Positions 8,066-24,136 of a stretch of 25,515 nucleotides of DNA are shown here, in pieces (positions within the stretch are counted from its first letter, which is position 1; each line of letters starts with the position of its first letter). The notes below the pieces were generated by a model, which was given only the letters and a program-made list of their open reading frames with translations, made no database searches and had not been told where the DNA came from. Origin of the DNA: Myxococcota bacterium. Lineage in GTDB: Bacteria > Myxococcota > JACRCW01. Location: assembly GCA_040752415.1 (NCBI GenBank), contig JBFMGU010000156.1:1-25515 (forward strand), given 5' to 3'. Position numbers and translations under genes: made by a program.

Positions 8066-10855
8066 TCAGGGGAAGTGGTTCAGGAGCACACTGACGTCGT
8101 CGCTGCTCTGGTTGCACGCGGCCAGGTCCGGCTTCCCGTCGCCATTGAGGTCCACCACCACCACGCCCACCGGCTGCGTACCCACCGGCTCGTCGGCGCC
8201 CAGCGGGGTGAACGTGCCGTCACCCGCGCCGAGCATCACGCGCACCATCCCGTCGCCGTGGGCGCTGGCCAGGTCGTCATTCCCGTCGGCGTTGAGATCC
8301 GCGGAGCGGAGCGCGGCGGGGCTGGTGCCCACCGTCAGGTAGCCGGGCGACTGCATGCCCGTGCCATCCATGCCCACCAGCGCCAGCAGCGCGGTCTCCG
8401 GGAGGGTCACCGCCACGTCGGGGCGACCGTCACCCTGCAGATCCACCGGCCCCACCTGCTCGGGGACATGGGCCAGCGTGACCCGGCTGTGCTCGACGAA
8501 GGTGCCGTCGCCCTGCCCCGTCATCAGGATGAGCTCGCTGTTGGCGGCGTCCACCACCACCACGTCCACCGCCGCATCCCCGACGAGATCCCCCGCCCAC
8601 AGCCCGCTGAGCTGCGTCCCCACCACCACGCTGGCGGGCGGACCCAGGGTGCCGTTCCCGTCGTTGAGGAGCACGGTGAGGGTGCCGTCTCCGTCCACCA
8701 CCAGCACGTCGGGTGCGGCGTCGCCGGTGAGGTCCACGGCCTGCAGCGCATTGGGGTTGGTCCCGGTGACGACGAGCGAAGGCGTGGGGAAGGATCCGTC
8801 GGGCTGCTGCATGAGCACGCTGATCCCCCCCTCGAACACCTCGGCCACCACCAGGTCCAGGCGGCCGTCGCCGTCCAGGTCCGCGGCGTCCACGTCGACG
8901 GGGGAGCTGACCACGGGCACCTCCGTGCGGCGGGTCAGCGTTCCGTCCCCCACGCCGTGCAGCAGGGTCACCGCCGCCGTGGTGAACGAGGCCACCGCGA
9001 GATCCGGACGCGTGTCTCCGTCGATGTCCGCGGCGGTGAGCGACTGGGGACCGGCGCCCACCGCGTAGGCGACCGCGTCGGCGAAGAGCGCGGCGGGTGA
9101 GACGGGCTGGCACACGTGGGGGGTGCCGCCGCCGGCGCACTGCAGCGGGGGCGTGCAGGAGCCGCACTCGACGACGCCGTTGCACCCGTCGGGAATCGCG
9201 TCGCACTCGAAGCCGGGCGGGCATTCCGTGAGGGGAACGCAGCCGCCGCTGCTGGAGCTGGTGCTGCCCCCGGAGCTGCTGGTGCTGCTGGAGCTGCTGC
9301 TTCCCGACGAGGATGTGCTCCCTCCCGACGAGCTGCTGGTGGAGGTTCCCGCGGGGAGCTCCGCCAGGTTGGCCAGGATGTGGACGCGCGCGGTGCTGTA
9401 GACGGCCACCGCCACGTCGGGACGGCCGTCGCCGGTGACGTCGCCCACGCTGGCGTGGAGGGGTTGCGCCTCCAGCGGCACGGTGGCCACCAGCGGGAAG
9501 GACCCGTCGGCCTGGCCCTGCAGCGCGTGGATGGCGCCCGCCGCGTCGACCACCACGAGATCCATGCGGCCGTCCCCGTCGAGATCGGCGGCGGCGGACT
9601 GGGTGGGCGCGTTGCCGGCGGGATGGGACACGTCGGCAGCGGACAACCCGGACGCGGTACCCCGACGGACGCGCAGCAGGCCCTCTTCCGTGGAGGACAC
9701 GACCACGTCGGTGAGCGCGTCCTCGTCCAGCTCCGTGGCCAGCACGTGGATGGGCGCGCGACCCGCGGTGAGCTGCTGCGCCGTCCCCAGCGCGCCGTCG
9801 ACGGAACCGGGCAGCAGGTTGAGCCGGTTGGCGGAGAAGTCCACGGCGGCCACGTCGAGCCATCCGTCGTGGTCCGCGTCCAGGACCGCCACGGCATTCG
9901 CGTACTCGCCCAGCGGATAGGACACCGGCGCGGAGAGCACGCCGCCGCCTTCCCCGAGCAGCACGCTCACCGCGCCGTCGTCGTTGGCCACCACCACGTC
10001 GGGGATGGCGTTATCATCCAGCAGCGCCACGGCAAGCGCATTGGGACCCACGCCGGCGGGATACGCCGCGGCCTCGGCGAATTGCAGCCCACCCAGGCCC
10101 CGCAGGACGCTCACACTGTTGCCCGCGATGTTGGCCACTGCCAGGTCCAGCACGCCGTCCACGTCGAGGTCCGCGGCCTGCACCGCCACCGGGGAGAAAC
10201 CGACGGAAAGCGAGGCGACCAGCTCCCAGCTCCCGCCGCCCAGGTTGCGCCAGACCACCACGCGGTGATCCACGGCGTCGGCGACCACCAGGTCCACCTG
10301 GCCATTGGCGTCGAGATCCGAGAGCAGCACGCTGGTGGGACCGGCCACGTCCTCCAGGCTGGCCACCCGCGCAAAGCCGGCGTTGCCGCCGCATTGATTC
10401 GCCACCCCGCCTCCCGAGCAGGACCGGGGCCACAGGCAGCTTCCGCAGGAGATGGGCACGCCGCAGTCGTCCCAGGTGCCGCACTCGTACCCTGGGGGAC
10501 ACCGGTTCTGGCGCGTGCACCCGCCGCTGCTGGAGCTGGAGGTTGACGTCGTGGACGCGCTGGAGGACGTGCCGCCGGTGGTGGAGCCCGTGCTGCTCGT
10601 GGAGCTGGTGCTGCCACCCGTGCTCGTCGACAGGGACCCGCTCGAGGACGACGAGGAAGCCGCCCCCGACGACGACGCGCTACCGCTGGACGACGACGAA
10701 GCCGAGGAGGACACGACGCTGGACGAGGCCACCGAGCCACTGCTGGACGACGAGCTCACGGTCTCCACGCCAGCGTCGGAAGACACCGGAGGCGGCGGCG
10801 GACACCCCACCAACACCCACACTCCCACCAACGCAAGCACACGACGGGAACGCAT
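8066..10855 (-). CDS. FG-GAP/VCBS-repeat lipoprotein with two repeat blocks, Ser-rich linkers and Cys-rich modules (929 aa)
   Basis: Start MRSRRVLALVGVWVLVGC is lipobox-like. Many D-L-D-G-D-G-x-x-D-L-(A/V)-V repeats occur in two blocks. Each block is preceded by a poly-Ser/Thr linker and a CPPG(Y/F)EC...CGSC...C.GGG...C module. Confidence 0.88.
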   Translation of the reverse strand: MRSRRVLALVGVWVLVGCPPPPPVSSDAGVETVSSSSSSGSVASSSVVSSSASSSSSGSASSSGAASSSSSSGSLSTSTGGSTSSTSSTGSTTGGTSSSASTTSTSSSSSGGCTRQNRCPPGYECGTWDDCGVPISCGSCLWPRSCSGGGVANQCGGNAGFARVASLEDVAGPTSVLLSDLDANGQVDLVVADAVDHRVVVWRNLGGGSWELVASLSVGFSPVAVQAADLDVDGVLDLAVANIAGNSVSVLRGLGGLQFAEAAAYPAGVGPNALAVALLDDNAIPDVVVANDDGAVSVLLGEGGGVLSAPVSYPLGEYANAVAVLDADHDGWLDVAAVDFSANRLNLLPGSVDGALGTAQQLTAGRAPIHVLATELDEDALTDVVVSSTEEGLLRVRRGTASGLSAADVSHPAGNAPTQSAAADLDGDGRMDLVVVDAAGAIHALQGQADGSFPLVATVPLEAQPLHASVGDVTGDGRPDVAVAVYSTARVHILANLAELPAGTSTSSSSGGSTSSSGSSSSSSTSSSGGSTSSSSGGCVPLTECPPGFECDAIPDGCNGVVECGSCTPPLQCAGGGTPHVCQPVSPAALFADAVAYAVGAGPQSLTAADIDGDTRPDLAVASFTTAAVTLLHGVGDGTLTRRTEVPVVSSPVDVDAADLDGDGRLDLVVAEVFEGGISVLMQQPDGSFPTPSLVVTGTNPNALQAVDLTGDAAPDVLVVDGDGTLTVLLNDGNGTLGPPASVVVGTQLSGLWAGDLVGDAAVDVVVVDAANSELILMTGQGDGTFVEHSRVTLAHVPEQVGPVDLQGDGRPDVAVTLPETALLALVGMDGTGMQSPGYLTVGTSPAALRSADLNADGNDDLASAHGDGMVRVMLGAGDGTFTPLGADEPVGTQPVGVVVVDLNGDGKPDLAACNQSSDDVSVLLNHFP

Positions 10856-10942
10856 GGCCCTCCAGGGGAACCCGAGTGCCGCGCTCAAGGCAAGTTCGCG
10901 GCACACGGGCGCAGAGCGAAGTGATAGCCTCTCCATCGGCCC

Positions 10943-11344
10943 ATGACGAAATCCTTCTGGTACACCCTGAGCGGGAACAGCATGGCGCCCGCCCTCAGGG
11001 ACGGCGAGAGCATCTTCCTGGAGCCACTGACGGGCGCGCCTCGTCGTGGAGACGTGGTGGTGCTGCGTCTGCCCACGGGCTGGGTGGTGCACCGCGTGCT
11101 GCGCGCCAACGGCAACATGGTGGTCACGCGCGGTGACGCGTGCGTGCGCGCGGATCCCGGGATGGGTCGTGATGCCGTGCTGTATCGCGCCACGCAGGTT
11201 CTGCGCGACGGACAACCACACCCCATTCCCGCGCCCTCCCCCGCGCTGCGGCTCCAACTCCGACGGGCACTTGCCCGCGTCCCACGTGTTGCTTCGCTGT
11301 TGCGGGGTCTGCGACGCGCACTGGTGGCGGAAGGGCTGGCCTGA
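10943..11344 (+). CDS. S24/S26-family peptidase (signal-peptidase-like, no transmembrane anchor)
   Basis: Motifs SGNSMAPAL (catalytic Ser box), RRGDVVV, VVHRV and VTRGDA. The stop overlaps the next start (TGATG). Confidence 0.82.
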   Translation: MTKSFWYTLSGNSMAPALRDGESIFLEPLTGAPRRGDVVVLRLPTGWVVHRVLRANGNMVVTRGDACVRADPGMGRDAVLYRATQVLRDGQPHPIPAPSPALRLQLRRALARVPRVASLLRGLRRALVAEGLA

Positions 11345-14300
11345 TGACGTCGAGCAGTGTGCGCGATCCAGGCGTGCGCGTTTGCCTCGCCCTTCTGGTG
11401 ACCACCGCGTTGACGTGGAGCGCGGACGCGCGCGCGCAGGCCACCGGGTACGTGCAGACGGTGGGATTGGCGCAGAGCAAGACGTCGTCCAGCACGCTCT
11501 CGGTCACGGTGGGCACGGCGGTGACGGCGGGCAATCGCGTGGTGATTGCGTTTGCCATGGATGACGTGTCTGGAACCGTCTCCGCGTCCGACACCGCGGG
11601 GAACAGCTACGCCGTCGACGCCGATTCGCAGAACACCGGCACGGTGCGCAACGTCATCCTCAGCGCGCACATGAGCAGCGGGCTGGCGGTGGGCAACACC
11701 ATCACGGTGAGCTTCCCCACCGTCACCGCCAAGGCCATGGTGGTGGCCGAGTACTACGGCGTGGCGCCCACCAACGCGGTGCACGGAACCGCCTCCAACA
11801 CCGCCACCAGCGGGGTCATCAGCACCGGGTCGGTCACCACCACGCGCGCGGACATCCTGCTGGTGGGCACGGTGGGAACGGAGGGACCGGAAGCGGACAA
11901 CATCTCGCCGTACAACAACTTCACCGGCGTGGCCAAACGCGGCACCACCGGCGGCACCGACAACACCAACATCACCGCCGGCATGGGCCTGCGCGTGGTG
12001 ACAACGACGGGGAGCTACACCGGCGACGCCACCATCAGTCCCTCCCGCTCCTGGGCCGCCGCGTTGGTGGCCTACCAGTCCGCGCCCTCCACGCTTGCCT
12101 TCAGCAACGCCACGAGGACACTGACCGCGGGCAGCTGCGGAGGCAGCACGAACGTCTTCACGTTGGAGACGCGGTCCAGCGGCGGCAGCGCGGTTCCGCC
12201 CACGGGGAGCACGGTGGTGGCGGTCAGCTCCACCACGGCCACCGCCACGTTCTACTCCGACGCCACCTGCACCACCGCGCTGCCCGTCTCCAGCGGCGCC
12301 GCGCAGGTCACGTTCACCAGCAGCGAGAGCAGCAAGAGCATCTACGTGCTGGACACCGCGGTGGGCACGGCCACCATCAGCGCCTCCCAGGTCTCCGGCC
12401 CGGACACGCTCTCCGCGACGAGCCAGGCCTACACGGTGACCGGCGGCGTGGGCTCCAATTCGTCCAAGACCACGGGCACCAGCCTGTCGGTCACGGTGGG
12501 CAGCGTCGGGGTGAACCAGGATGAGCGCATCGTGGTGGCGTTCGCCATGGACTACACGGCAACTGCCACGCCGGCGTTGGCCTGCGCGGACAGCAAGGGC
12601 AACAGCTACGCCATCGACGCCAACATCCCCAACACGGGCGGCGTGCGCACCGTGGTCTTCACCGCCCATGCCGCCCAGGCACTGGTCAGCGGCGACGTCA
12701 TCACCGTGACCCATCCCTCGGTGGCCGCGCGAGCCATGACGGTGTCGCGCTTCGTGGGTGTGGCCTCCAGTGGTGCCCTGGACCGGACGAGCGTGCGCAC
12801 AGGAAGCATTACGTCGGTGACCTCCAACGCCACGGCCACCACCACGCGCGCCCACGAGCTGGTGATCGGCGTGACCGGCGTGGAGGGCGTGACTTCCGAT
12901 GGCTACACGCCCACCGGAGGCTTCACGCTGGACTCGCAGGCGGGAACCACCGGGGGCGGCGCGAACACCAACATCGCGGTCTTCCTCACCTTCAAGGAGG
13001 TTTCGACGACGGGCACGCAGACGTCCACCGGCAACCTTGGCACCGCCCGGGACTGGGCCGCCGCGGTGGCCACCTACAAGCTGGTCCCGAACAAAGTCGT
13101 CATCAGCAGCAACCCCTCACCGCTGACCGCGGGCGTGGGCGAGGCGTTCACGCTGCAACCGCAGAGCGTCAAAGGCGTGGCCATGCCGCCGCTCACCGAC
13201 ACCACTGCCACGGTGACGACGACGAGCGGGAACGCCACGCTGTATCCGGGCACCGCGTGCACGGGGACTTCGGGCAGCACCGTCACGTTCTCCGCCAGCG
13301 CCACCTCCCCCTACACCACCGACGTATGCGTGCTGGATCGTCGCAAGTCGGCTCCCACGCACACGCTGCAGGTGACCTCGTCATCGTTGACGGGCACCAG
13401 CGGGACGTACGTGGTGGACGCGGGCGCGCTGAGTCGCCTCGCGGTGGCGCTGCCGGGTCAGACGTTCACCGACGGGAGCGGCGTCAGCGGGACCGCCTCG
13501 AACCAGACCGCGGGAACGGCCTTCACGCTGGCCGACCTCGCCGGCACGGACGACTACGACAACGTTGTCTCCTCGTTCAGCGGCACATACACGCTCAGCT
13601 ACAGCGGTCCCAGCAACGCGGGCGACGGCACGCCACCGCAGTACACCACAAGCGCTTCGTTCACCTCCGGCGTGGCAACCACGTCGCTGGTGACGACGTT
13701 GGTGAAGGCGGAGACGGTGGCCATCACGGTGACGGGTGGCGGGGTTTCGGGCACTTCCTCCCTGGTCACGGTGGTGGCGCCGGCGGACACCACGTCGGTC
13801 TCCGCGGTGGGAACGGGCTACGCCAACCGGACCAGCGGCGTGGTGCAGGTGAGCGTGGTCAACGGCACCGGCGGCGGACTCGTCCGCGTGGACCTCGACG
13901 CGCCCAGTGGCTTCCTATGGGATCCCACGTCGGGGTCCACCACGGTGGCGGGGTGGAGCGTGACCTCGTCGAGTGCGAGCACCATCACGTTCGAGGGACC
14001 GGCGAGCGCGTTCCTGAACGGCGCCACGGGCAGCTTCTCCGCCACCAACGCAGGCGGCCTCTACCCCAACAACGCCGTCGACACCGACCACGACGTCGTG
14101 GTGACCTGGGACGGCTACCAGTCGGGAGCGGCAACCGCCGCGTTCACCGTGCTGGTGCCCATTGGCAACGTGGTGCTGCCCGCGGTGAGCCGCTCCGCCG
14201 CATCCGCGCGCCCCACCTTCTACTGGACCAACTCCGACGAGTACCGCACCCATTCCGGCGTGTTGATCCTGCGCGGCAGCGACGTTCCCGTCGACGGTGT

Positions 14301-15636
14301 CACCTACGCGGCGGGCGATACGCTGGGCAGCTCCGTGGTGGTCTGCGTGGATGGCGGCACGGGACAGGGCTGCACGGAGAGCACCTCCGTGACGCAGGAC
14401 GACGCCACGCAGCGCTACGTGTTCCACAACTTCGACGCGTCGCAGGTCTACGCCACCGGCGTGGCCATCAGCGTTCCCGCCCGGCCGGCGCAGGGCTTCC
14501 TCTACAAGCACAGCGCGGCCGGCATGACGCCACCGGGGGTCCGCCCCGGCTCGCTCAGTCCGCCCGGCTTCGCCACCTTCGCCGCCAACGACCTGGGCCT
14601 CTACTTCGTCCGTCGTGACGGGACGGAGGAACGACGCGCGGTCCTGCTCAACAACCAGGTCACCCGCCGCTCCCTGCCACTCTCCGACGCCAGCGCAGGC
14701 TACGCCGTCTTCACCGCCGACTCCGGCAGCCCCAACCCCGGCACCCTCTACCGCGTGGAACCGAGCGGAAGTCCCACCACCTCGACGACGACGGCGGCGG
14801 TCAGCAGCGGCGTGGGCGCGTTGCTCACCTCGTCGGCGGCACTGCACAGCACCTACAAGGCCAACGGACCGGCCCTGCTGTTCGGCACCAACGAGGCTTC
14901 CGGCAACTACATCCGCGCCGTGCGCCCGGACCTCACCGCGTACTGGACGCTCAGCATTGGCACCGACGCCATCACCCACGAGGTCAACAGCGACGTCACG
15001 CGGGCGTACATGTTCGTGCCGGTGGGCGCGGGCAGCGGCGGCATCTACGCGTTCGACATGAGCGTGGACCCCGGAGCGGGCGCCGCGCCCAAGCCCAGCG
15101 GGTGGGCCTCACAGAAGATCCTCGACGGGACGCTGTTCAAGGCGCAGTGCCGCATGTCCCCCACGGCGTGGACCCAGCAGGCGCTCTTCTGCGGCAGCCA
15201 CAGCGGCACGCTCTACGCCATCAATCCCGCCACCGGCGCGGTCATTGCCACGACGTCGGTGACCGGCAGCGTGCAGGGCCTGGTGGCGATCTCCAGCGCC
15301 GGGTACGTGGTGTACTCCACGCGCAGCGGCAGGGTGGGCAAGGTCTACTTTGACGGCACCGCGTTCAAGACCGCCGCCGACGGCCAGGCCAACACGTTCG
15401 AGGTCACCGTCTCCGGCGCCGCGGTGGTGAGCACGCCCCTGCCCATCAGCGCGGGGGTGTTCGTGGGCGGGGCCGGCAAGCTGTTCAAGCTGAACCCCAC
15501 CGACGGGTCGCTCCTGGGCTCACTGGCGTTGGATGGCGTGCAAGTCAGCGAAGTGGCGCTGGAAACCTCGACGAGCACCATCTTCGTCCAGACCAGCGCG
15601 GGAACCATCTGGGGAGTGCCCGCGTCCGGCCTCTGA
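11344..15636 (+). CDS. Large secreted Thr/Ser/Gly-rich beta-structured surface protein (1430 aa): repeated N-terminal modules, Ig/FN3-like domains, probable C-terminal PQQ-like beta-propeller
   Basis: Signal peptide ending ARA|Q. Two ~200-aa internal repeats end in WAAALVAY and WAAAVATY. Propeller-like blades (GTLYAINPATGAV, GKLFKLNPTDGSLL) near the C-terminus. Continuous GC3-biased ORF. Confidence 0.85.
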   Translation: MTSSSVRDPGVRVCLALLVTTALTWSADARAQATGYVQTVGLAQSKTSSSTLSVTVGTAVTAGNRVVIAFAMDDVSGTVSASDTAGNSYAVDADSQNTGTVRNVILSAHMSSGLAVGNTITVSFPTVTAKAMVVAEYYGVAPTNAVHGTASNTATSGVISTGSVTTTRADILLVGTVGTEGPEADNISPYNNFTGVAKRGTTGGTDNTNITAGMGLRVVTTTGSYTGDATISPSRSWAAALVAYQSAPSTLAFSNATRTLTAGSCGGSTNVFTLETRSSGGSAVPPTGSTVVAVSSTTATATFYSDATCTTALPVSSGAAQVTFTSSESSKSIYVLDTAVGTATISASQVSGPDTLSATSQAYTVTGGVGSNSSKTTGTSLSVTVGSVGVNQDERIVVAFAMDYTATATPALACADSKGNSYAIDANIPNTGGVRTVVFTAHAAQALVSGDVITVTHPSVAARAMTVSRFVGVASSGALDRTSVRTGSITSVTSNATATTTRAHELVIGVTGVEGVTSDGYTPTGGFTLDSQAGTTGGGANTNIAVFLTFKEVSTTGTQTSTGNLGTARDWAAAVATYKLVPNKVVISSNPSPLTAGVGEAFTLQPQSVKGVAMPPLTDTTATVTTTSGNATLYPGTACTGTSGSTVTFSASATSPYTTDVCVLDRRKSAPTHTLQVTSSSLTGTSGTYVVDAGALSRLAVALPGQTFTDGSGVSGTASNQTAGTAFTLADLAGTDDYDNVVSSFSGTYTLSYSGPSNAGDGTPPQYTTSASFTSGVATTSLVTTLVKAETVAITVTGGGVSGTSSLVTVVAPADTTSVSAVGTGYANRTSGVVQVSVVNGTGGGLVRVDLDAPSGFLWDPTSGSTTVAGWSVTSSSASTITFEGPASAFLNGATGSFSATNAGGLYPNNAVDTDHDVVVTWDGYQSGAATAAFTVLVPIGNVVLPAVSRSAASARPTFYWTNSDEYRTHSGVLILRGSDVPVDGVTYAAGDTLGSSVVVCVDGGTGQGCTESTSVTQDDATQRYVFHNFDASQVYATGVAISVPARPAQGFLYKHSAAGMTPPGVRPGSLSPPGFATFAANDLGLYFVRRDGTEERRAVLLNNQVTRRSLPLSDASAGYAVFTADSGSPNPGTLYRVEPSGSPTTSTTTAAVSSGVGALLTSSAALHSTYKANGPALLFGTNEASGNYIRAVRPDLTAYWTLSIGTDAITHEVNSDVTRAYMFVPVGAGSGGIYAFDMSVDPGAGAAPKPSGWASQKILDGTLFKAQCRMSPTAWTQQALFCGSHSGTLYAINPATGAVIATTSVTGSVQGLVAISSAGYVVYSTRSGRVGKVYFDGTAFKTAADGQANTFEVTVSGAAVVSTPLPISAGVFVGGAGKLFKLNPTDGSLLGSLALDGVQVSEVALETSTSTIFVQTSAGTIWGVPASGL
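14514..15437 (+). repeat. Copy 1 of a ~924-bp direct repeat (copy 2 at 19255-20178)
   Basis: Constant offset of 4741 bp. Off-frame ORF translations are identical (14615-15061 vs 19356-19802; 15102-15353 vs 19843-20094). The first mismatches flank the tract at 14513/19254 and 15438/20179. Confidence 0.93.
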
Positions 15637-15737
15637 CGTCTGAAACAACGGAGTGTGCCCACGTCACAGATCCGGGGTCCGCGCTGCGGATACGATTGTT
15701 GACGTATCACGAGGCACTTCCTACAGTATTTCCTCGT

Positions 15738-15752
15738 TGGCACGCGGTTTGC
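15738..15752 (+). promoter_or_regulatory. Sigma54 (-24/-12) promoter upstream of the PqqD gene
   Basis: TGGCACG-CGGT-TTGC matches TGGCACG-N4-TTGC with exact GG-N10-GC spacing. It lies in the only sizeable, relatively AT-rich intergenic gap of the cluster. Confidence 0.7.
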
Positions 15753-15776
15753 CCACATTCACCGACGGGTCCGGAC

Positions 15777-16118
15777 ATGAACGGCGACAGCACTCAGTCC
15801 GCAGCGGCATCGGCGACCCCAGGGCCAGCGTCGCTGGAGGCGGTGCCGGTGGTGGGGAGCCGGTGCGCGTGGCAGTCGCTGGACGGTGAAGCGGTGGTGA
15901 TTGACCTCACCGCCCGGCGCGTCATGGGCCTGAACCCGGCCGGCACGCTGCTGTGGAGCCACGCCGACGGCAAGCGCACGGTGCGCGAGCTGGCGGAGCT
16001 GCTGGCGGCGCGGTTCGCGTTGACGGCGCCCACGGCGGAGGCCGACGCGGCGAGCTTTGTGGGCAAGATGGTGGCACGGGGGCTGATGGACCTGCGGTCC
16101 CCGACGGGGGACCCATGA
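15777..16118 (+). CDS. Stand-alone PqqD-family protein / RiPP recognition element (113 aa)
   Basis: WQSLDGEAVVIDLTARRVMGLNPAGTLLWSHADGKRTVRELAELLAARFAL...AEADAASFVGKMVARGLM is the typical three-strand, three-helix PqqD pattern. ATGA overlap with the next gene. Confidence 0.92.
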   Translation: MNGDSTQSAAASATPGPASLEAVPVVGSRCAWQSLDGEAVVIDLTARRVMGLNPAGTLLWSHADGKRTVRELAELLAARFALTAPTAEADAASFVGKMVARGLMDLRSPTGDP

Positions 16119-19100
16119 GCGTGCGCCTGCTCTTCCCCTCCGCGGTGGTGGCCGTGGTGGCGTTGTCCGCCCCGGTACACGCCCAGGTTGCCGCACGGGT
16201 GAAGAACCTGGGCACGGCACAGAACAAGACCGCGGGGAGCAACACGCTGACGGTGACGGTTCCCTCGGGAGGGGTGGCGCAGAACAACCGGATCATCGTG
16301 GCGGTGGCCATGGACGCGGTCAGCGGCACGGTCAGCGCCTCGGACTCGCGCGGGAACAGCTACGCCGTCGACGCGGACGTGACCAACTCCGGGACGGTGC
16401 GCACGCTCATCCTGAGCGCCAACGCAAGCACGTCCCTGACGGCGGGGAACACCATCTCCGTCACCGTGCCGTCCGGCGCCACGGCCAAGGGGATCGTCGT
16501 CAGCGAGTACTCCGGCCTGATGCCCAGCGGGGCCCTGGACAAGACCGCCACGGGGACGGGCAACAGCCGCAACCCCGCCACCAGCAGTGCCACCACCACC
16601 CGCGCCAACGAGATGCTGATTGGCGTGGTGGGCGCGGAAGGCCCGGAGAACGACGTGCTGAGCCCGGGCGGCTCCTTCACCACCGACGCCAAGGCCGGCA
16701 CCAGCGGCAACCCCGCGGCCACCAACGTCACCGCCACGCTGCTGTACCGGGAGGTCACCGCCACGGGGAGCTACGCGGTCTCCGCCCGACTGAACACCAG
16801 CCGCGCCTGGGCCGCCGCCATGGCCACCTACCGCGCCGCGCCCAGCAAGGTGGTGTTCACCAACACCAACCGCATCCTCTCCGCCGGCGTGTGCAGCGGC
16901 ACCAGCAATCCGTTCACGGTGGTCCTGCAGAGCAGCAACAGCGCCGCGGTCCCGCCCACCGGCACCACCGTGCTGGGCGTGAGCTCCACGTCGGGGACGG
17001 CCACGTTCTACTCGGACTCCGCGTGCACCACGGCCATCACGCAGCTCACCTTCAGCAGCACGGAGAGCAGCAAGACGTTCTACGTGCTGGACACGCAGAC
17101 CTCGTCGGGATCACCCACGCTGACGGTTTCCAAGGTCTCCGGCCCGGACACGCTGAGCGCGGCCACGCAGACCTACGCGGTGAACGGAACCATTGGCTTT
17201 GCGCAGAGCACCAACCCCGCGGTGACCACGCTGTCCATCACGCTGGGAACCACGGTGCCGGTGAACAACCGCGTTGTCATCACCTTTGCCATGGATGATC
17301 CCAGCGGCGGCACCATCACGGCGTCGGACAGCCGCGGCAACACCTACTCCACCGACCTGGACGTGCGGTCGCAGAACCAGGTGCGCGCGTTCATGTTCTC
17401 CGCCAACACCACCACCGCCCTGGTGCCCGGGGACACCATCAGCGTGACCTTCCCGTCGGTGACGGCGAAGGCGATGACGGTGGCCTACTTCTCGGGACTG
17501 GCGCAGACCGGCGCGGTGGACGTCACCACCAGCACCACCGGCTCGGGCACGTCGGTGACGAGCAACAGCGCCACCACGTTGCGCGCGCAGGACCTGCTGA
17601 TGGGGCTGGTGGGGGTGGAGGGCCCGTCCACGGAGACCATCACCGCGGGCAACAGCTTCAAGGTGGAAGGGAGCTACGGCACCAACGGCGACGGCGGCGC
17701 GGGTGACATCTCCGTGCACATGTTGTCGCGCCAGGTCACGGCCACCGGCAGCTACGCCGCCACGGGTACGCTGTCGCAGTCGCGCAAGTGGGCGGCGGGG
17801 ATGGCGGCGTACAAGCTGGCCCCCTCGCAGATTGTCTTCACCAACACCACGCAGACGCTGACGGCGGGAACCTGCAGCGGCACCGCCGCGCCCTTCACCC
17901 TGGAGCTGCGCAACGCCACCGGCGTGGCCGTGCCGCCCACCGGCACCACGGTGGTGAACCTGGTCCAGCCCACCGGCTCCAACGCGCTCTTCTACAGCGA
18001 CAGCGGCTGCACCACGGCCATCACCAGCGTGACGTTCTCCTCCACGCAGAGCAGCCAGACCTTCTACGTGCGCGACACCGTCGCCGCCACGCACACCCTC
18101 ACGGTGCAGAAGGCTTCCGGTCCCGAGGCGCTCACCGACGCGTCGCAGAGCTACACGGTGAACCGCCTGGCCGCCGACCGCCTCATCGTCACGCTGCCCG
18201 GCGAGACCTTCACGCCCGGCTTTGGCAACAGCGGGACGGTGACCACGCAGACCGCCAGCGTGCCCTTCGACATCGTCGACATCACGATGACCGACGTCTA
18301 CCACAACGTGGACACCAGCTATTCCGGCAGCGTCACGCTCAGCTACAGCGGTCCCTCCGCGGGTCTGGACGGCAGCCAGCCCAGCTACACCACCGCGGTC
18401 ACCTTCAACGCCGGCCAGGTGTCCACCGCGCTCCCCACCACGCTGCAGCGCGCGGAGACCGTTTCCCTCGTCGTCAGCGGGGCGGGGCTGAGCGGCACGT
18501 CCTCACCGCTCACGGTGGTGCTGCCGGCGGATACCACCACGGCGTCCGTCACCAACTCGCCGGCCTACGCGGCGCGCAGCAGCGGCGAGATCGAGGTGAG
18601 CATCACCAACGGCACCAGCGGGCTCATCAACCAGGTGGTGCTCACGGCGCCGTCGGGGTGGACGTTTGACGCGGGCAGCACCAGCCTCAGCGGATGGACG
18701 GTGAGCGCGGCGGCGGGCGCGGTGACCTTCAGCGTGGGAACCGGGGCCGCGTTCAGCAACGGAAGCACCGCCACCTTCCGCGCGCGCAACAGCGGCGGCT
18801 TCTACCCCAACCCCGCCAGCGACACGACGTACACGGTGCCCATGGCGTGGTCGGGGTTCCAGCCGGGAAGCAGCAGCGCTTCCTTCACGGTGATGGTGCC
18901 CATTGGTTGGGTCGAGCTGCCCGCGGTGAGCCGCTCCGCCACCAGCGCGCGTCCGGTCTTCTACTGGACCAATTCCGACGTCAGCCAGACGCACGCCGGC
19001 GTCATGGTGGTGCGCGGAACCGACCGGCCCACCGACAAGCAGGCCTACGCCGTGGGCGAGGTCATTGGCAGCTCGGTGGTGGTGTGCGTGGACGGCGGCA

Positions 19101-20371
19101 CGGGAGAGAGCTGCACGGAGAGCACGTTGGTGACGCAGGACGACGGCAGCGCCACCTACACGTTCTACAACTTCGACGCGCTGTACGGGTATTCGAACCC
19201 GCGGAGCATCGTCGTGGCGGCGCGGCCGGGCACGGGGTTCTTCTACAAACACGCCGCGGCCGGCATGACGCCACCGGGGGTCCGCCCCGGCTCGCTCAGT
19301 CCGCCCGGCTTCGCCACCTTCGCCGCCAACGACCTGGGCCTCTACTTCGTCCGTCGTGACGGGACGGAGGAACGACGCGCGGTCCTGCTCAACAACCAGG
19401 TCACCCGCCGCTCCCTGCCACTCTCCGACGCCAGCGCAGGCTACGCCGTCTTCACCGCCGACTCCGGCAGCCCCAACCCCGGCACCCTCTACCGCGTGGA
19501 ACCGAGCGGAAGTCCCACCACCTCGACGACGACGGCGGCGGTCAGCAGCGGCGTGGGCGCGTTGCTCACCTCGTCGGCGGCACTGCACAGCACCTACAAG
19601 GCCAACGGACCGGCCCTGCTGTTCGGCACCAACGAGGCTTCCGGCAACTACATCCGCGCCGTGCGCCCGGACCTCACCGCGTACTGGACGCTCAGCATTG
19701 GCACCGACGCCATCACCCACGAGGTCAACAGCGACGTCACGCGGGCGTACATGTTCGTGCCGGTGGGCGCGGGCAGCGGCGGCATCTACGCGTTCGACAT
19801 GAGCGTGGACCCCGGAGCGGGCGCCGCGCCCAAGCCCAGCGGGTGGGCCTCACAGAAGATCCTCGACGGGACGCTGTTCAAGGCGCAGTGCCGCATGTCC
19901 CCCACGGCGTGGACCCAGCAGGCGCTCTTCTGCGGCAGCCACAGCGGCACGCTCTACGCCATCAATCCCGCCACCGGCGCGGTCATTGCCACGACGTCGG
20001 TGACCGGCAGCGTGCAGGGCCTGGTGGCGATCTCCAGCGCCGGGTACGTGGTGTACTCCACGCGCAGCGGCAGGGTGGGCAAGGTCTACTTTGACGGCAC
20101 CGCGTTCAAGACCGCCGCCGACGGCCAGGCCAACACGTTCGAGGTCACCGTCTCCGGCGCCGCGGTGGTGAGCACGCCGCTGCCCATCAGTCGCGGCATC
20201 TTCGTGGGTGGGGCGGGCAAGCTGCACAAGCTGGACAACGCCACCGGCGCGCTGCTGGGCAGCCAGACGCTGGACGGAGTGCAGGTCAGCGAGGTGGCGC
20301 TGGAGACGTCCAGCAGCACGTTCTTTGTCCAGACCAGCGACGGCACCATCTGGGGCATTCCCGCCTTCTGA
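16115..20371 (+). CDS. Large secreted surface protein (1418 aa), paralog of 11344-15636
   Basis: ATG at 16115 with a GGGGA RBS. Signal peptide MSVRLLFPSAVVAVVALSAPVHA|Q. Same domain order as the first copy, with an identical stretch in the C-terminal region. Confidence 0.87.
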   Translation: MSVRLLFPSAVVAVVALSAPVHAQVAARVKNLGTAQNKTAGSNTLTVTVPSGGVAQNNRIIVAVAMDAVSGTVSASDSRGNSYAVDADVTNSGTVRTLILSANASTSLTAGNTISVTVPSGATAKGIVVSEYSGLMPSGALDKTATGTGNSRNPATSSATTTRANEMLIGVVGAEGPENDVLSPGGSFTTDAKAGTSGNPAATNVTATLLYREVTATGSYAVSARLNTSRAWAAAMATYRAAPSKVVFTNTNRILSAGVCSGTSNPFTVVLQSSNSAAVPPTGTTVLGVSSTSGTATFYSDSACTTAITQLTFSSTESSKTFYVLDTQTSSGSPTLTVSKVSGPDTLSAATQTYAVNGTIGFAQSTNPAVTTLSITLGTTVPVNNRVVITFAMDDPSGGTITASDSRGNTYSTDLDVRSQNQVRAFMFSANTTTALVPGDTISVTFPSVTAKAMTVAYFSGLAQTGAVDVTTSTTGSGTSVTSNSATTLRAQDLLMGLVGVEGPSTETITAGNSFKVEGSYGTNGDGGAGDISVHMLSRQVTATGSYAATGTLSQSRKWAAGMAAYKLAPSQIVFTNTTQTLTAGTCSGTAAPFTLELRNATGVAVPPTGTTVVNLVQPTGSNALFYSDSGCTTAITSVTFSSTQSSQTFYVRDTVAATHTLTVQKASGPEALTDASQSYTVNRLAADRLIVTLPGETFTPGFGNSGTVTTQTASVPFDIVDITMTDVYHNVDTSYSGSVTLSYSGPSAGLDGSQPSYTTAVTFNAGQVSTALPTTLQRAETVSLVVSGAGLSGTSSPLTVVLPADTTTASVTNSPAYAARSSGEIEVSITNGTSGLINQVVLTAPSGWTFDAGSTSLSGWTVSAAAGAVTFSVGTGAAFSNGSTATFRARNSGGFYPNPASDTTYTVPMAWSGFQPGSSSASFTVMVPIGWVELPAVSRSATSARPVFYWTNSDVSQTHAGVMVVRGTDRPTDKQAYAVGEVIGSSVVVCVDGGTGESCTESTLVTQDDGSATYTFYNFDALYGYSNPRSIVVAARPGTGFFYKHAAAGMTPPGVRPGSLSPPGFATFAANDLGLYFVRRDGTEERRAVLLNNQVTRRSLPLSDASAGYAVFTADSGSPNPGTLYRVEPSGSPTTSTTTAAVSSGVGALLTSSAALHSTYKANGPALLFGTNEASGNYIRAVRPDLTAYWTLSIGTDAITHEVNSDVTRAYMFVPVGAGSGGIYAFDMSVDPGAGAAPKPSGWASQKILDGTLFKAQCRMSPTAWTQQALFCGSHSGTLYAINPATGAVIATTSVTGSVQGLVAISSAGYVVYSTRSGRVGKVYFDGTAFKTAADGQANTFEVTVSGAAVVSTPLPISRGIFVGGAGKLHKLDNATGALLGSQTLDGVQVSEVALETSSSTFFVQTSDGTIWGIPAF
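19255..20178 (+). repeat. Copy 2 of the ~924-bp direct repeat
   Basis: Matches 14514-15437 at offset 4741. Confidence 0.93.
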
Positions 20372-20378
20372 GGAACCC

Positions 20379-20837
20379 ATGCGCGCAGCACCTCCGAGAT
20401 TCCCGTGGTCCCTGCTCGCCGGCGCGCTGCTGGCCGCCGCGTGTCAGCAGGAGGTGGGCCCACCGGAAACCCAAGCTCCGACGGGAGAAGCGCCTCCGCC
20501 CGCCGCTGGCGCTCCCGCGGGTCGTCCGGAAATCACCGTGCGCGGGGAGTCGGGTGAGGCAAATCTCCACGTCGGCGACAGCGCAGCCATCCTGCAGACG
20601 CGCTGGCCCAAGCCGGAGCCGGGGGATCGTCAGAATCTTGAGCTGTTCACCCCCGACGGAAACCTGTATCTCCGCAACACCAGCCCGGTGCCCGCCGACG
20701 GCGTGGTCTCCCAGCGCCTGCCGCTGCGGGGTAGCCACATCGAGGACTACAGCATGACGGGGACCTGGCGGGTCCGCGTCTACCGCAACAGCGCCACCGT
20801 GCCTGCGGCGGAAACCAGCTTTGAAGTGAAACTGTGA
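20379..20837 (+). CDS. Putative lipoprotein with a small Ig-like C-terminal domain (152 aa)
   Basis: GAGGA RBS overlapping the previous stop. Lipobox-like LLAAAC, a Pro/Ala linker, then LELFTPDGNLY...MTGTWRVRVY...SFEVKL. Confidence 0.82.
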   Translation: MRAAPPRFPWSLLAGALLAAACQQEVGPPETQAPTGEAPPPAAGAPAGRPEITVRGESGEANLHVGDSAAILQTRWPKPEPGDRQNLELFTPDGNLYLRNTSPVPADGVVSQRLPLRGSHIEDYSMTGTWRVRVYRNSATVPAAETSFEVKL

Positions 20838-20867
20838 CGTCGTGGGATTGGCCCTTGTTGTGACCTG

Positions 20868-21029
20868 ATGAAGAACCCGTTGCCCACCCCCACCCGCCCG
20901 CCGGCCGCGCCCTCCCCGGAGCGCTACGAGCCGCCCACGATTGCGTGGGAGGAGGACTTCGAGCCGGCGGGGCAGTCCACCGGCTGCCTCACGGGGGAAG
21001 GCGACTGCCTGGACGCGCCCGCGACGTGA
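20868..21029 (+). CDS. Putative RiPP precursor peptide (53 aa; not in the ORF track)
   Basis: MKNPLPTPTRPPAAPSPERYEPPTIAWEEDFEPAGQSTGCLTGEGDCLDAPAT*. 51 of 53 codons end in G/C. It has a YxxPxI motif and a two-Cys core, and fills the gap between the lipoprotein and kinase-like genes. No strong RBS is visible. Confidence 0.8.
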   Translation: MKNPLPTPTRPPAAPSPERYEPPTIAWEEDFEPAGQSTGCLTGEGDCLDAPAT

Positions 21030-21039
21030 GGAACGCGTG

Positions 21040-21822
21040 ATGCAGCCCACGGTGATTCCGCTGGAGATTGCACGCGTCCGGTTTGACGTGGCGAGTGAGG
21101 ACGGCGCCCTGCTCTCCCGCCTGCGCACCAGCTACGGACCCTTTGTGACGGCGGAGCGCGGGGGCATCCGCGTGAGCCTGGCCGGTGAGCCCGCGGCCCT
21201 GGCCGGCAACCCCAGCGGCGAGGTGGTGCGCGAGGACGAGGAGCTGCGCCTGCGGATGAGCCCACAGATGGGCTTCCTGGATCGTCGACGAGGCCAGGGC
21301 ACCCTGCGTCCCCACCCCAGCCTGCTGGGGCTGGACATGCTGTTGCGCGCGGAGATCACGCTGCGGGCGCTGGAGGCCGGGGGCGTGGCGCTGCATGCGT
21401 GTGGCGTGGAGCTGCGGGGTCGGGCGCACGTGTTCGCGGGGCCGTCCGGCGCGGGGAAGACCACGCTGGCGGGAATGCTGGAGCGCGAGGGCGCGCGCGT
21501 GCTTTCCGACGAGATGATGGTGGTCCGCCCCGGTGACGACGGACGCTGGTGGGCGTACGGCACACCCTACCGTTACGGCACGCGTGAGGGTGCGCCGCTG
21601 CACGCGTTGTGGCGGTTGCGGCACGGGCCGCGCTCGGTGCGCGCGCTGACGCGTCACCAGGCGCACCGGCACCTGGTGGGGAATCTCAGCCTGTGCGTGC
21701 GCGGTGACGTCGAGGTGGAGCTGGCCCTGGCGGGCGCCACGCGGCTGGCCGCCGCCGTTGACGCGCATGAGCTGACCTTCTCGCTCACCGACGCGCTGCG
21801 CGACGTGGTGGAGGCGGCATGA
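21040..21822 (+). CDS. HPr-kinase-related P-loop protein (260 aa)
   Basis: ALHACGVELRGRAHVFAGPSGAGKTTLA...VLSDEMMVVR: His-Ala motif, Walker A and SD(D/E) signature of HprK-like kinases. GAGGA RBS before ATG 21040. ATGA overlap with the radical SAM gene. Confidence 0.85.
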   Translation: MQPTVIPLEIARVRFDVASEDGALLSRLRTSYGPFVTAERGGIRVSLAGEPAALAGNPSGEVVREDEELRLRMSPQMGFLDRRRGQGTLRPHPSLLGLDMLLRAEITLRALEAGGVALHACGVELRGRAHVFAGPSGAGKTTLAGMLEREGARVLSDEMMVVRPGDDGRWWAYGTPYRYGTREGAPLHALWRLRHGPRSVRALTRHQAHRHLVGNLSLCVRGDVEVELALAGATRLAAAVDAHELTFSLTDALRDVVEAA

Positions 21823-22913
21823 CCACGACGTCGAACTACGGACGCTGGAAGGCGCGCGCGGCCTCCGCGGGACGCCCCACCACGGCGCACCTGGAGCTGA
21901 CCTACCGCTGCAACGTGCAGTGTCGACACTGCTTCCAGGACCGTCACCACGCGAAGGACGCGATGGCGCTGGAGGACTGGAAGCGCGTGGTGGACGAGGC
22001 GCGTGAGGCGGGCGTGCTGGTGGTGACCTTGAGTGGCGGCGAGGCGTTGCTGTCGCCGCACTTCTGGCCGCTGGCGGAGCACATCCGCGCCCGGGGACTG
22101 GCGTTCCGCGTGTTCACCAACGGGGTGCTGCTGAACAAGCGGAATTGTCGTCGGCTGGCGGCGCTGCAACCGCTGAGCGTGGAGGTCTCCATCTTCAGCC
22201 TGGACCCCGCGGTCCACGACGGCGTGACGCAGGCGCCCGGTTCCCTGCGCAAGGCGCTGCGCGGGTTGGCCATGCTGCATTACCTGGGCGTGACCACCAA
22301 GCTGAAGTGCCCGCTGCTGGACACCTCCACCAAGGACTACGCCGACGTGCGCGCGCTGGCGGAGCGGCTGGGCGCAAGCGTGGCGTTCGACCCGGGCATC
22401 ACCCCGCGCTTCAACGGCGACCTGGCTCCCACGGCGTGCCGCGGAGATGAGCATTTCCTGGTGGAATTCTTCCGCGACCCGCAGACGCGCCACCACGAGC
22501 TGAAGGACCTGCCGCCGCGCAAGCCGGGCGACGCCATCTGCGGCATTGCCCGCACCTTCACCGTGGTGGGCCCCGACGGGCGCGTGCTCCCGTGCGTGCA
22601 CATCCAGCAGCCGGTGGGGAATGTGAAGCAGGAAGGGCTGCTGCGGATCTGGGAGCACTCCCCGACGCTGCAGAAGCTGCGCCAGACCACCTACGCGGAC
22701 CTGCCGACGTGCAATGGCTGTCCGCGCAGCGGGTACTGCGGGAGGTGCAGCGCGGTGGCATTGCTGGAGGACGGAGACTTCCACGGTCCTTCGTCCCGCG
22801 CGTGTGAGCTGGCGGAGCTGAAGGAGCAGGCGTGGGGCGTGCCGCCGCCGGCCGGGGTGCGGGAGAAGACAGGAACCACCGCGGGGAAGCGGCTGCTGCA
22901 GGTCTTGCGGTAG
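21819..22913 (+). CDS. Radical SAM / SPASM-domain peptide or protein maturase (364 aa)
   Basis: ELTYRCNVQCRHC (CxxxCxxC), LSGGEAL and FTNG. Seven-Cys SPASM domain: CGIA...GRVLPC...GNV...CNGCPRSGYCGRC-x18-C. No N-terminal RRE. Confidence 0.95.
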   Translation: MTTTSNYGRWKARAASAGRPTTAHLELTYRCNVQCRHCFQDRHHAKDAMALEDWKRVVDEAREAGVLVVTLSGGEALLSPHFWPLAEHIRARGLAFRVFTNGVLLNKRNCRRLAALQPLSVEVSIFSLDPAVHDGVTQAPGSLRKALRGLAMLHYLGVTTKLKCPLLDTSTKDYADVRALAERLGASVAFDPGITPRFNGDLAPTACRGDEHFLVEFFRDPQTRHHELKDLPPRKPGDAICGIARTFTVVGPDGRVLPCVHIQQPVGNVKQEGLLRIWEHSPTLQKLRQTTYADLPTCNGCPRSGYCGRCSAVALLEDGDFHGPSSRACELAELKEQAWGVPPPAGVREKTGTTAGKRLLQVLR

Positions 22914-22948
22914 TTGGGGGCTGCGCGACGGTCGCCGAAGCGACGACG

Positions 22949-24136
22949 TCAGCCGAGGGCCGCGCTGCGCAAAAGACCCGGTGCGCACGCCAGCGCCGCG
23001 CGCGGCAACGCCTCCATGCCACAGGTGGCGCCGAGCATGCGGGAGAACAGGTCCGGCCGTCCCGCCAGGGAGCGCACCATGAGCCACACCAGCGCGCGGT
23101 GTCGCGAGGCCATGAGGACGCCGTGGGTGAGGACCTGGTGGTCGCGCACCAGCTCGTGGCGAGCCCGGGCGTAGTCGCGCAGCGCGTGGGCGCGCAGATC
23201 CCCCGTGTCCAACGCACGCAGGATGGTCCGCGCCGCCAACGGGGCGCTCTGCAGCGCCAGGCTCATCCCCTCGCCGGTGATGGCGTCCACGTAGCCCGCG
23301 GCGTCGCCCACCAGGAGCGCGGCGTCGGCCACCACGTCACGCGCTTCCACGCGCAACGGACCGCAAGCGCGAACGTCCGTGATCGGCTCCGCGCCGGAGA
23401 GCATCTCCATCACCGCCGGCACCTGCCGCAGCACGCCCTGGTAGCCACGCGTGAGATCCCCGCGCATGACCTCCATCCGCGCCTTCTCCAGCAGGCACAC
23501 CACGTTGGCCCCGTCGGGTCCCGAGGGCGTCACGTAGACCTCGCCGCCGCCCATCAGGTGCACGTGCACCAGTCCGTCGGTGAGCGGGCGGGCCAGGCGG
23601 TAGTGGCACACCACGCCGTAGCGGTTGTTGCCGTGGTGTCCCCCGTCCAGCCCCAGCCTGCGCCGCACCAATGAGCGCGCACCGTCCGCCCCGACGAGAA
23701 ACCGCGCCTGCCACGTCCCCTCACGCGTCTCCACGTACCAGCGGTCATCCTCCCGACGGAGCGCGCGCACCGGCTCGCCCTCGCGTCGCTCCGCGCCGGC
23801 GTCGCGGGCCATGGCGGCCATCACCACGTCCAGCTCCAGGCGGCGGATGCACAGGCCCTCCGCTCCGTCGGGGAAGTGGCCCACCGCGGTGCGTCCGGCG
23901 GCGTGGTAGGCAATGCCGCGCATGGGTCGGGCCCCGCGCGCGCGCACCGCGTCCAGCACGCCCAGGTCCCGCAGCGCGTCCACCCCGCCGGGCATGATGC
24001 CCTCCCCGCAGGGCTTCTCCCGCGGGAACGACTCCGCCTCCAGCACCATGACCTTCACGCCACGACGCGCCAGTGTTGCCGCCACCGCGCAGCCCGCCAC
24101 GCTCCCACCCACCACGATCACGTCGTAGTTCGACAT
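22949..24136 (-). CDS. FAD-dependent oxidoreductase (geranylgeranyl reductase / flavin monooxygenase-like)
   Basis: Motifs YDVIVVGGSVAG, FPREKPCGEG, LVGADGARS and LLVGDAAGYVDAITGEGMSLAL. Confidence 0.9.
   Translation of the reverse strand: MSNYDVIVVGGSVAGCAVAATLARRGVKVMVLEAESFPREKPCGEGIMPGGVDALRDLGVLDAVRARGARPMRGIAYHAAGRTAVGHFPDGAEGLCIRRLELDVVMAAMARDAGAERREGEPVRALRREDDRWYVETREGTWQARFLVGADGARSLVRRRLGLDGGHHGNNRYGVVCHYRLARPLTDGLVHVHLMGGGEVYVTPSGPDGANVVCLLEKARMEVMRGDLTRGYQGVLRQVPAVMEMLSGAEPITDVRACGPLRVEARDVVADAALLVGDAAGYVDAITGEGMSLALQSAPLAARTILRALDTGDLRAHALRDYARARHELVRDHQVLTHGVLMASRHRALVWLMVRSLAGRPDLFSRMLGATCGMEALPRAALACAPGLLRSAALG

Follow-up and report, generated by a model that had tools for sequence, protein, structure and literature searches.

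A candidate LPP-like peptide maturation cassette co-inherited with giant secreted propeller proteins in Myxococcota

The closest characterised relative of the locus described here is the Bacillota system of linear polyphosphorylated peptides (LPP; LppA/B/K/S/N/D; Popov et al. 2026, PMC13381572). There, the stand-alone LppB, a recognition element (RRE) for peptides made on ribosomes and modified after translation, binds the leader at Tyr-16 and Pro-13, the protease LppS, with its Ser/His/Asp triad, cuts after position -1 aided by the RRE, and the HprK-like kinase LppK phosphorylates Ser3 (+3); the biological role of LPP and of phosphorylated lasso peptides is stated there as unknown. We analysed a window of 25,515 nucleotides, one whole contig (C64) of an 11 Mb, 70% GC genome of a Myxococcota bacterium, in which eight genes encode an S24/S26-type (S26) protease, a giant secreted protein (giant A), a PqqD-type RRE, a second giant (giant B), a lipoprotein, a short cysteine-containing peptide, an HprK-like kinase and a radical S-adenosylmethionine (rSAM)/SPASM enzyme. 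The initial annotation of this window had proposed an RRE-dependent peptide pathway tied to giant secreted proteins. Our analysis supports that proposal, and such a pathway is undescribed in the literature searched, a search that most subscription papers lay outside. On balance, we favour the explanation that an LPP-type maturation kit has been joined to a secreted propeller protein and a lipoprotein, with the matured peptide as a dedicated partner. LPP-like enzyme logic is thus found co-inherited with a specific candidate partner.

The locus shares with LPP a stand-alone RRE, a YxxPx[V/I] leader, an HprK-like kinase, an archaeal-type signal-peptidase-like protease, the absence of a lasso cyclase, and the distances that separate the leader Tyr from the predicted cleavage site and from a Ser/Thr at +3 (PMC13381572). 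Unlike LPP, it has a Myxococcota host, a short Cys-containing core, an invariant Trp at Tyr+7, no MsbA exporter, a nucleotidyltransferase that is usually absent and an optional rSAM/SPASM enzyme; LPP is tied to capsule loci, this system to a giant propeller protein and a lipoprotein (PMC13381572). The main text of the LPP report does not mention radical, rSAM, SPASM, Myxococc-, surface or secreted; in its supplement a few proteases from Myxococcota appear, lying outside the cluster under study, and two of these rows have no precursor assigned (PMC13381572). The enzyme logic is that of the LPP set, yet the cluster departs from LPP in exporter, nucleotidyltransferase, FET leader motif and host phylum, and the operon is not classed as LPP, SynChlorMet, lasso or sactipeptide. 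The initial annotation had taken PqqD/PqqE, MftB/MftC and SynChlorMet as its models; LPP, with its combination of RRE, signal-peptidase-like protease and HprK-like kinase, replaces them as the closest characterised system.

Kinase-bearing lasso clusters of the paeninodin/Bsf type share a discrete RRE, a [Y/W]xxP leader and an HprK-like kinase (as summarised in PMC13381572). No lasso macrolactam cyclase or B2 protease was found among the 16 window open reading frames (ORFs) scanned and, unlike paeninodin-type precursors, propeller-type precursors mostly lack a terminal Ser (0/6 in the rSAM clade, against 21/31 in other cassette types). The SynChlorMet cassette (TIGR04248-04251) and the HPr-rel-A system (TIGR04352/04353) are further known systems represented in NCBIfam. 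SynChlorMet shares the combination of PqqD, HprK-like kinase and rSAM/SPASM enzyme. It has two rSAMs; here there is one, optional, and the unit adds an S26 protease, a lipoprotein and a propeller giant. No cassette protein attains a model cut-off of the named NCBIfam systems: ScmC, ScmD, ScmE and ScmF scored 25, 34, 97 and 87 bits against cut-offs of 125, 100, 400 and 400, and the PqqE and MftC models 87.9 of 381 and 109.5 of 265 bits.

A reciprocal search was made from the giant, using an alignment of its C-terminal module; proteins sharing this module make up a family with 60 representatives at E 1e-30 and with variable N-termini. In addition to two loci already in the comparison, we examined 40 of the 66 listed match places, 37 of them with a propeller call. 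The lipoprotein was present in all 37 loci, the peptide in 30 (27 by profile, 3 by inspection), PqqD in 24, the S26 protease in 21, the kinase in 20 and the cassette rSAM in none, one locus holding a partial, distant match. The lipoprotein adjoins the propeller giant in 43/43 loci, and loci losing enzyme genes usually retain the peptide beside the giant, while gene order differs between genomes. The conserved unit is lipoprotein, giant and peptide, usually with PqqD, S26 protease and kinase; the rSAM is optional. Because the peptide usually abuts the giant gene, survives enzyme loss and has subfamilies that follow giant type, linkage places it with the giant, and a functional tie between the two is very probable. 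Co-inheritance with propeller giant and lipoprotein makes the peptide a likely partner of a cell-surface protein rather than a free antibiotic. The initial annotation had leaned the same way, and gene linkage favours such a surface role. From linkage only, we infer that giant and lipoprotein form a complex on which the peptide acts.

Loci reached from the rSAM point in the same direction. According to the initial annotation, homologous rSAM loci without a conserved short peptide or associated secreted proteins would have spoken against the pathway; in the loci examined, both the conserved peptide and large secreted proteins are present. More distant rSAMs occur in 44/401 genomes of the phylum, where the kit is unchanged but accompanies giants of other types: among the 23 that were scanned, 9 matched C25 protease and 7 FG-GAP, 3 had no match, and one each matched Ig only, PQQ-like, EGF and NHL. 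In a quick unrooted tree, giant type tracks rSAM clade. With kinase-bearing loci as its seed, a peptide profile had 39 matches across 212 loci, and dropping one opposite-strand artefact and one duplicate left 37 peptides in 35 loci; 147 of the 148 SPASM loci without a kinase were without a peptide match. An ORF of at least 1000 aa was present in 33/46 cassette loci (at least 10 kb) versus 8/83 other SPASM loci, the latter being distant SPASM enzymes, which made up most of what the alignment scans returned; a scan of genome contigs with one protein alone gave no match. Kin are non-independent in this comparison, and contig ends truncate some of the negatives.

The source genome (G000) holds a second cassette (L230, G000:C188 2322-13547) with PqqD, giant, peptide, kinase and rSAM, and no S26 gene in the locus. 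Its giant (~2900 aa) is secreted with an FG-GAP-like C-terminus, its peptide has 60 aa, two Cys and a terminal Ser, and its rSAM is 32% identical to that of the window. Another FG-GAP-type cassette (L030:4355-8790) has three precursor copies and two rSAMs.

The unit is present in many myxobacteria, and a copy lies in the laboratory model Myxococcus xanthus. The proteins of locus L253 cluster with Q1D612, Q1D611, Q1D610 and Q1D609 of M. xanthus DK1622 and with a 48-aa hypothetical protein. The DK1622 operon comprises MXAN_3726 (S24/S26), MXAN_3727 (PqqD), MXAN_3728, MXAN_3729 (PQQ-like propeller, 3099 nt) and MXAN_3730, which follow one another on the same strand, the last after a gap of 166 bp (PMC9548883). 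This copy is transcribed (PMC9548883, PMC5857379), a point in favour of the explanation we prefer. Judging from the L253 layout, the 48-aa peptide would fill this gap and MXAN_3730 would be the kinase. In the PMC5857379 supplement, with columns as interpreted here, MXAN_3729 has values of 69-351 under starvation versus 12-41 with nutrients, and MXAN_3726-3728 are modestly up with dead prey. The presence of a copy in this tractable species makes the role of such peptides testable.

The 53-aa ORF is not a chance reading frame, as its leader motif and cysteines are kept in homologues, synonymous changes are in excess and the profile is specific. Tyr and Pro of the YxxP motif are invariant in 28/28 aligned precursors; 11 equal-length homologous genes differ pairwise by 385 synonymous versus 176 non-synonymous codon differences; and the profile retrieved 2 of 167,550 ORF tails in this genome at E < 0.01, both in cassettes and both members of the profile seed set. 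The gene has a GC content at third codon positions of 0.94. Searches by short-word tblastn with the peptide returned Pro-rich noise only. In one group of genomes (L244, L246, L252, L260, L261 and L271), the propeller giant is followed by a divergent form of the precursor, which has a WxxP leader and 6-7 Cys; S26 is nearby on the other strand in four of these loci, and no PqqD or kinase was called in the four checked.

The processing steps are, in our estimation, probable by analogy with LPP. A PDB sequence search with the PqqD/RRE returned two matches only, lasso TbiB1 and 9x8z (LppB, E 5e-4), both YxxP-binding RREs, and PqqD would likely bind the YxxPxI leader. The S26 protease has Ser14, His50 and Asp65, with SM, HR and GD motifs at 13, 50 and 64, lacks a signal or membrane helix, and matches TIGR02228 at E 3.7e-8, below cut-off. 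The motifs of the kinase (His, P-loop GPSGAGKT, Asp-Glu pair) are intact. When Tyr20 is laid on LppA Tyr-16, the cut falls between Gly35 and Gln36, +2 is Ser37 and +3 is Thr38; the protease is accordingly predicted to cut after Gly35, and the kinase would likely phosphorylate Thr38 (or Ser37). In this register, 26 kinase-linked propeller-type precursors have Ala (23), Gly (2) or Thr (1) at -1 and Ala (20) or Pro (4) at -3, the family consensus at -3 to -1 being A-L-A, and Ser/Thr stands at +3 in 24 of the 26 versus 5/9 from loci without a kinase, although many of the 26 are close kin and the counts overstate independence. A cut directly before Cys40, where many of the rSAM-cassette precursors have small residues at -3/-1, was considered as well and ranked below the LPP register because the Cys position varies in propeller-type precursors.

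The predicted core has an unmodified monoisotopic mass of 1737.72 Da. In the rSAM-less loci, 30/30 precursors have at least two Cys and 29/30 an even number, and this retention indicates that the cysteines do not serve the rSAM alone. Read most simply, the cysteine pair probably forms a disulfide that closes a loop. A Cys lies at Tyr+18 to +20 in 36/37 rSAM-cassette precursors, and the spacing is looser (Tyr+17 to +28) in propeller-type precursors.

Both giants begin with a hydrophobic signal-like stretch. They are paralogues, a relation absent from the initial annotation, 61% identical overall and 35-60% along most of their length, and share a 924-bp tract of 100% identity that is confined to the propeller of these otherwise diverged proteins and reflects either recent gene conversion or assembly collapse. 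Giant A combines a signal peptide, two jelly-roll-type repeat units, an Ig-like stalk and a predicted 8-bladed propeller at its C-terminus; giant B has N-terminal beta-sandwich repeats, an Ig/Fn3-like module and a predicted 8-bladed BamB-like propeller (~aa 1037-1418). The model of the C-terminal 558 aa of giant B reached a predicted template modelling score (pTM) of 0.75 and a mean predicted local distance difference test of 73, its first 67 residues being unreliable. In structure comparisons the predicted propeller resembles BamB and designed 8-bladed propellers (BamB 4xga: Z 29.4, root-mean-square deviation 2.2, 311 aligned). At ~15% identity to BamB/YxaL-type proteins this is a generic fold match from which no function can be transferred and, unlike in those proteins, the propeller ends a secreted stalk of 700-2800 aa. 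The N-terminal unit, present twice, is predicted to be an all-beta sandwich pair (pTM 0.83), for which a structure search for a solved relative gave only weak jelly-roll-type matches (best Z 6.2). Family scans of the propeller-type giants gave no catalytic family match, and comparison with a plasmid collection gave no match. PilY1, also considered, is not among the family or structure matches listed.

Two side observations concern the giants. The N-terminal repeat of giant B at residues 25-245 (16187-16849) resembles unnamed ESM Atlas clusters, made up mostly of phage and archaeal proteins (scores 0.91-0.92). A third propeller giant (~2250 aa) with a lipoprotein lies at G000:C41 19754-26968 (L231), with lower GC at third codon positions, without peptide or enzymes, and adjoining an Rhs-like gene at the contig end; this pair may depend on a kit acting in trans, or it may be a relic.

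In the explanation we favour, the matured 18-residue peptide would partner the surface propeller/lipoprotein complex, and the rSAM would add one further modification in one clade. Peptide binding is common among eight-bladed propellers, and a single partner shared by giants A and B would be in keeping with their identical tract, if it is not an assembly effect; direct binding of the peptide to the propeller is, in our judgement, a possibility that falls just short of even. More tentatively, these ribosomal peptides may form a class of dedicated phospho- and disulfide-bearing ligands of giant cell-surface proteins, in contrast to peptides matured into antibiotics or redox cofactors. In such a class, lineages would differ in the partner domain, which may be an 8-bladed propeller, an FG-GAP propeller or a C25 protease, and would have added or dropped the rSAM step; the M. 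xanthus copy would be an unstudied example.

Several points weigh against a dedicated peptide partner matured in the LPP manner. The main gap is export: as the initial annotation had remarked, the cassette is without an exporter gene, no transporter recurs among the neighbours of the compared loci, and the precursor lacks a signal sequence, in contrast to the exported giants. Giant and lipoprotein occur without a detectable peptide in 7/37 loci (two at contig edges) and at C41. The precursor of Anaeromyxobacter oryzae has one Cys. The kinship among the 26 precursors also counts here, and LppK rejects Thr at +3 (PMC13381572), the residue that the window and G001 precursors carry there. Where FET would be expected at -3 to -1, the window precursor has FEP at -5 to -3, two residues earlier, so that the cut could instead follow Pro33. 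In M. xanthus, expression values of MXAN_3726-3730 are low but non-zero (transcriptome supplement of PMC9548883), and the literature searched gave no main-text mention of these genes and no phenotype.

Since no exporter recurs and neither the peptide nor the protease, kinase or rSAM has a signal sequence, the matured peptide could stay in the cytoplasm or inner membrane as a signal or checkpoint that governs how the giant is made or exported, and would then not bind the folded propeller. Unrelated giants share the same kit, and a regulatory role needs no common binding surface. We consider this unlikely, as no regulator or receptor recurs in the loci compared, the conserved and mostly even-numbered cysteines suggest an oxidising compartment, and peptide subfamily tracks giant type.

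A quite unlikely alternative is that the peptide is a covalent tag or anchor, attached through Cys or phosphate to the giant or the lipoprotein and decorating the cell surface. In its favour is the fixed leader-to-Cys distance of the rSAM-cassette precursors, and a C25 protease domain, of a family that includes a transpeptidase, terminates one class of partner giants; a nucleotidyltransferase is also linked in G001. The propeller-type giants, with no catalytic family match and with precursors of looser Cys spacing, fit it poorly.

The initial annotation also implied a sactipeptide or ranthipeptide pathway defined by an rSAM-made Cys thioether, with the rSAM as the cross-linking core of a minimal pathway. 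This view gave way once the same operon was found without the rSAM in the 37 giant-derived loci. At E 1e-20 the rSAM alignment had no match in a complete operon-bearing genome (G245), nor in three genomes of the Anaeromyxobacter family (96, 87 and 70% complete). Its absence from the giant-derived loci and from the complete genome marks the rSAM as optional and not the pathway core. Close relatives number 76 proteins at E 1e-60 (38-74% identity), and in a quick unrooted tree the window and close rSAMs form a clade of 8 rows (Shimodaira-Hasegawa-like approximate likelihood ratio test 100). The five members with adequate flanks (window, G001, A. oryzae Red232 L130, L052 and G422) all have the genes for rSAM, PqqD, kinase, peptide, lipoprotein and propeller giant, although their order differs between members, with S26 linked in four and unlinked in G001. 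The rSAM is confined to this small clade (window, G001, A. oryzae and few others); close matches occur in at least 3/363 genomes of the Anaeromyxobacter-containing order, and propeller module matches in 63/363. In a quick unrooted kinase tree, rSAM-less kinases group with rSAM-bearing Anaeromyxobacter ones with weak support (81), which is compatible with rSAM loss.

Thioether formation is nevertheless suggested by the SPASM seven-Cys motif, by a core with two Cys and acidic residues, and by the presence of an rSAM in all FG-GAP/C25-type cassettes, themselves found by rSAM search. CteB-type maturases and SuiB-type C-C cross-linkers share the seven-Cys motif (PMC6231123), and the window rSAM adds an invariant linker Cys207; its eight C-terminal Cys are invariant in 36/36 close relatives and, by sequence, would allow full cluster ligation, where an open site on Aux I would be expected of a sactipeptide or ranthipeptide maturase. 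SuiB, with such a linker Cys, is fully ligated, unlike CteB, with the caveat that in SkfB a linker Cys of that kind need not ligate (PMC6231123). The window rSAM differs from sactipeptide and ranthipeptide maturases in having no fused RRE, a SuiB-like linker Cys and a dispensable place in the module. Cysteines persist where the rSAM is missing, and A. oryzae keeps the rSAM although its precursor lacks the first Cys. Cys thioether formation is therefore not favoured, and a pathway defined by it appears improbable. Setting A. oryzae, with the rSAM, beside M. xanthus, without it, gives a natural pair in which a radical SAM reaction that is still uncharacterised stands alone as the difference.

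A role for the peptide as an antimicrobial or signal secreted in free form, with the giants mere neighbours on a mobile surface-protein island, is highly improbable: gene order does shuffle between genomes, S26 is unlinked in G001 and the same regions are crowded with other large surface genes, but in most loci, those that have lost enzyme genes included, peptide and giant are immediate neighbours, large ORFs are enriched at cassette loci, and no exporter or immunity gene recurs.

Within the rSAM clade, the G001 cassette (L018) lies near genes that we take to be NusG/UpxY-like and MarR-like and, like LPP clusters, comprises an NTP_transf_5 nucleotidyltransferase, here encoded on the opposite strand (L018:230-1655 and 16273-17448). 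This nucleotidyltransferase is linked only in G001 and unlinked in the source genome (G000:C270). Homologous Gly/Gln-rich genes of 330-350 aa (L050:1935-2927 and L276:421-1464; 35% identity, E 2e-45) stand after the rSAM in L050 and beside the unlinked S26 of G001 in L276; they have no NCBIfam match, and a similar C-terminus occurs at G000:C41 9265-10842.

Table 1. Features of the operon in the 25,515-nucleotide window.
Feature	Position	Strand	Basis
S24/S26 (archaeal signal peptidase I-like) protease, 133 aa, predicted leader peptidase	10943..11344	+	PF00717 E 1.6e-7
Giant secreted protein A, 1430 aa	11344..15636	+	domains by 61% identity to B models
Identical 924-bp tract (propeller core), copy in A	14514..15437	+	equals 19255-20178
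Sigma-70-like site, possible internal promoter before pqqD	15699..15727	+	consensus match only
Stand-alone PqqD/RRE, 113 aa	15777..16118	+	PF05402 E 7.6e-14
Giant secreted protein B, 1418 aa	16115..20371	+	structure prediction, sequence comparison
Identical 924-bp tract, copy in B (aa 1047-1354)	19255..20178	+	equals 14514-15437
Lipoprotein, 152 aa, single MG2-like Ig domain	20379..20837	+	lipobox-like LAAAC
53-aa precursor peptide, YxxPxI motif at Tyr20, Cys40, Cys47	20868..21029	+	homologue comparison
Predicted 18-aa core Gln36-Thr53	20973..21026	+	inferred from LPP register
HprK-like kinase, 260 aa	21040..21822	+	TIGR04352 E 2.5e-10, below cut-off
Radical SAM/SPASM enzyme, 364 aa, no fused RRE	21819..22913	+	PF04055 3e-19, PF13186 3e-10

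All eight ORFs described in the initial annotation were recovered on the plus strand (Table 1), as were the overlaps TGATG (11342-11346) and ATGA (16115-16118 and 21819-21822). Its account of overlaps or very short gaps holds for six of the seven junctions and fails between giant A and PqqD, successive intergenic distances being -1, 140, -4, 7, 30, 10 and -4 bp. The sigma-70-like site, inside the 140-bp gap, is the sole such match in 10300-23200 (0.2 +/- 0.4 expected).

The operon is flanked by a PilT-family ATPase gene (6653-8062, TIGR01420 above cut-off) and a gene for a geranylgeranyl-reductase-like flavoprotein (22949-24136, minus strand), neither of which was seen recurring with the cassette among the neighbours compared. 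Kinship of this flavoprotein with a flavoprotein-like gene near Myxococcaceae-type loci was ruled out (E 1.8). Between the ATPase gene and the operon, a divergent gene for an FG-GAP-repeat, Ser-linker secreted protein (8066-10938, minus strand) begins only a few bases away from the start codon of the S26 gene, which leaves almost no promoter room between the two genes.

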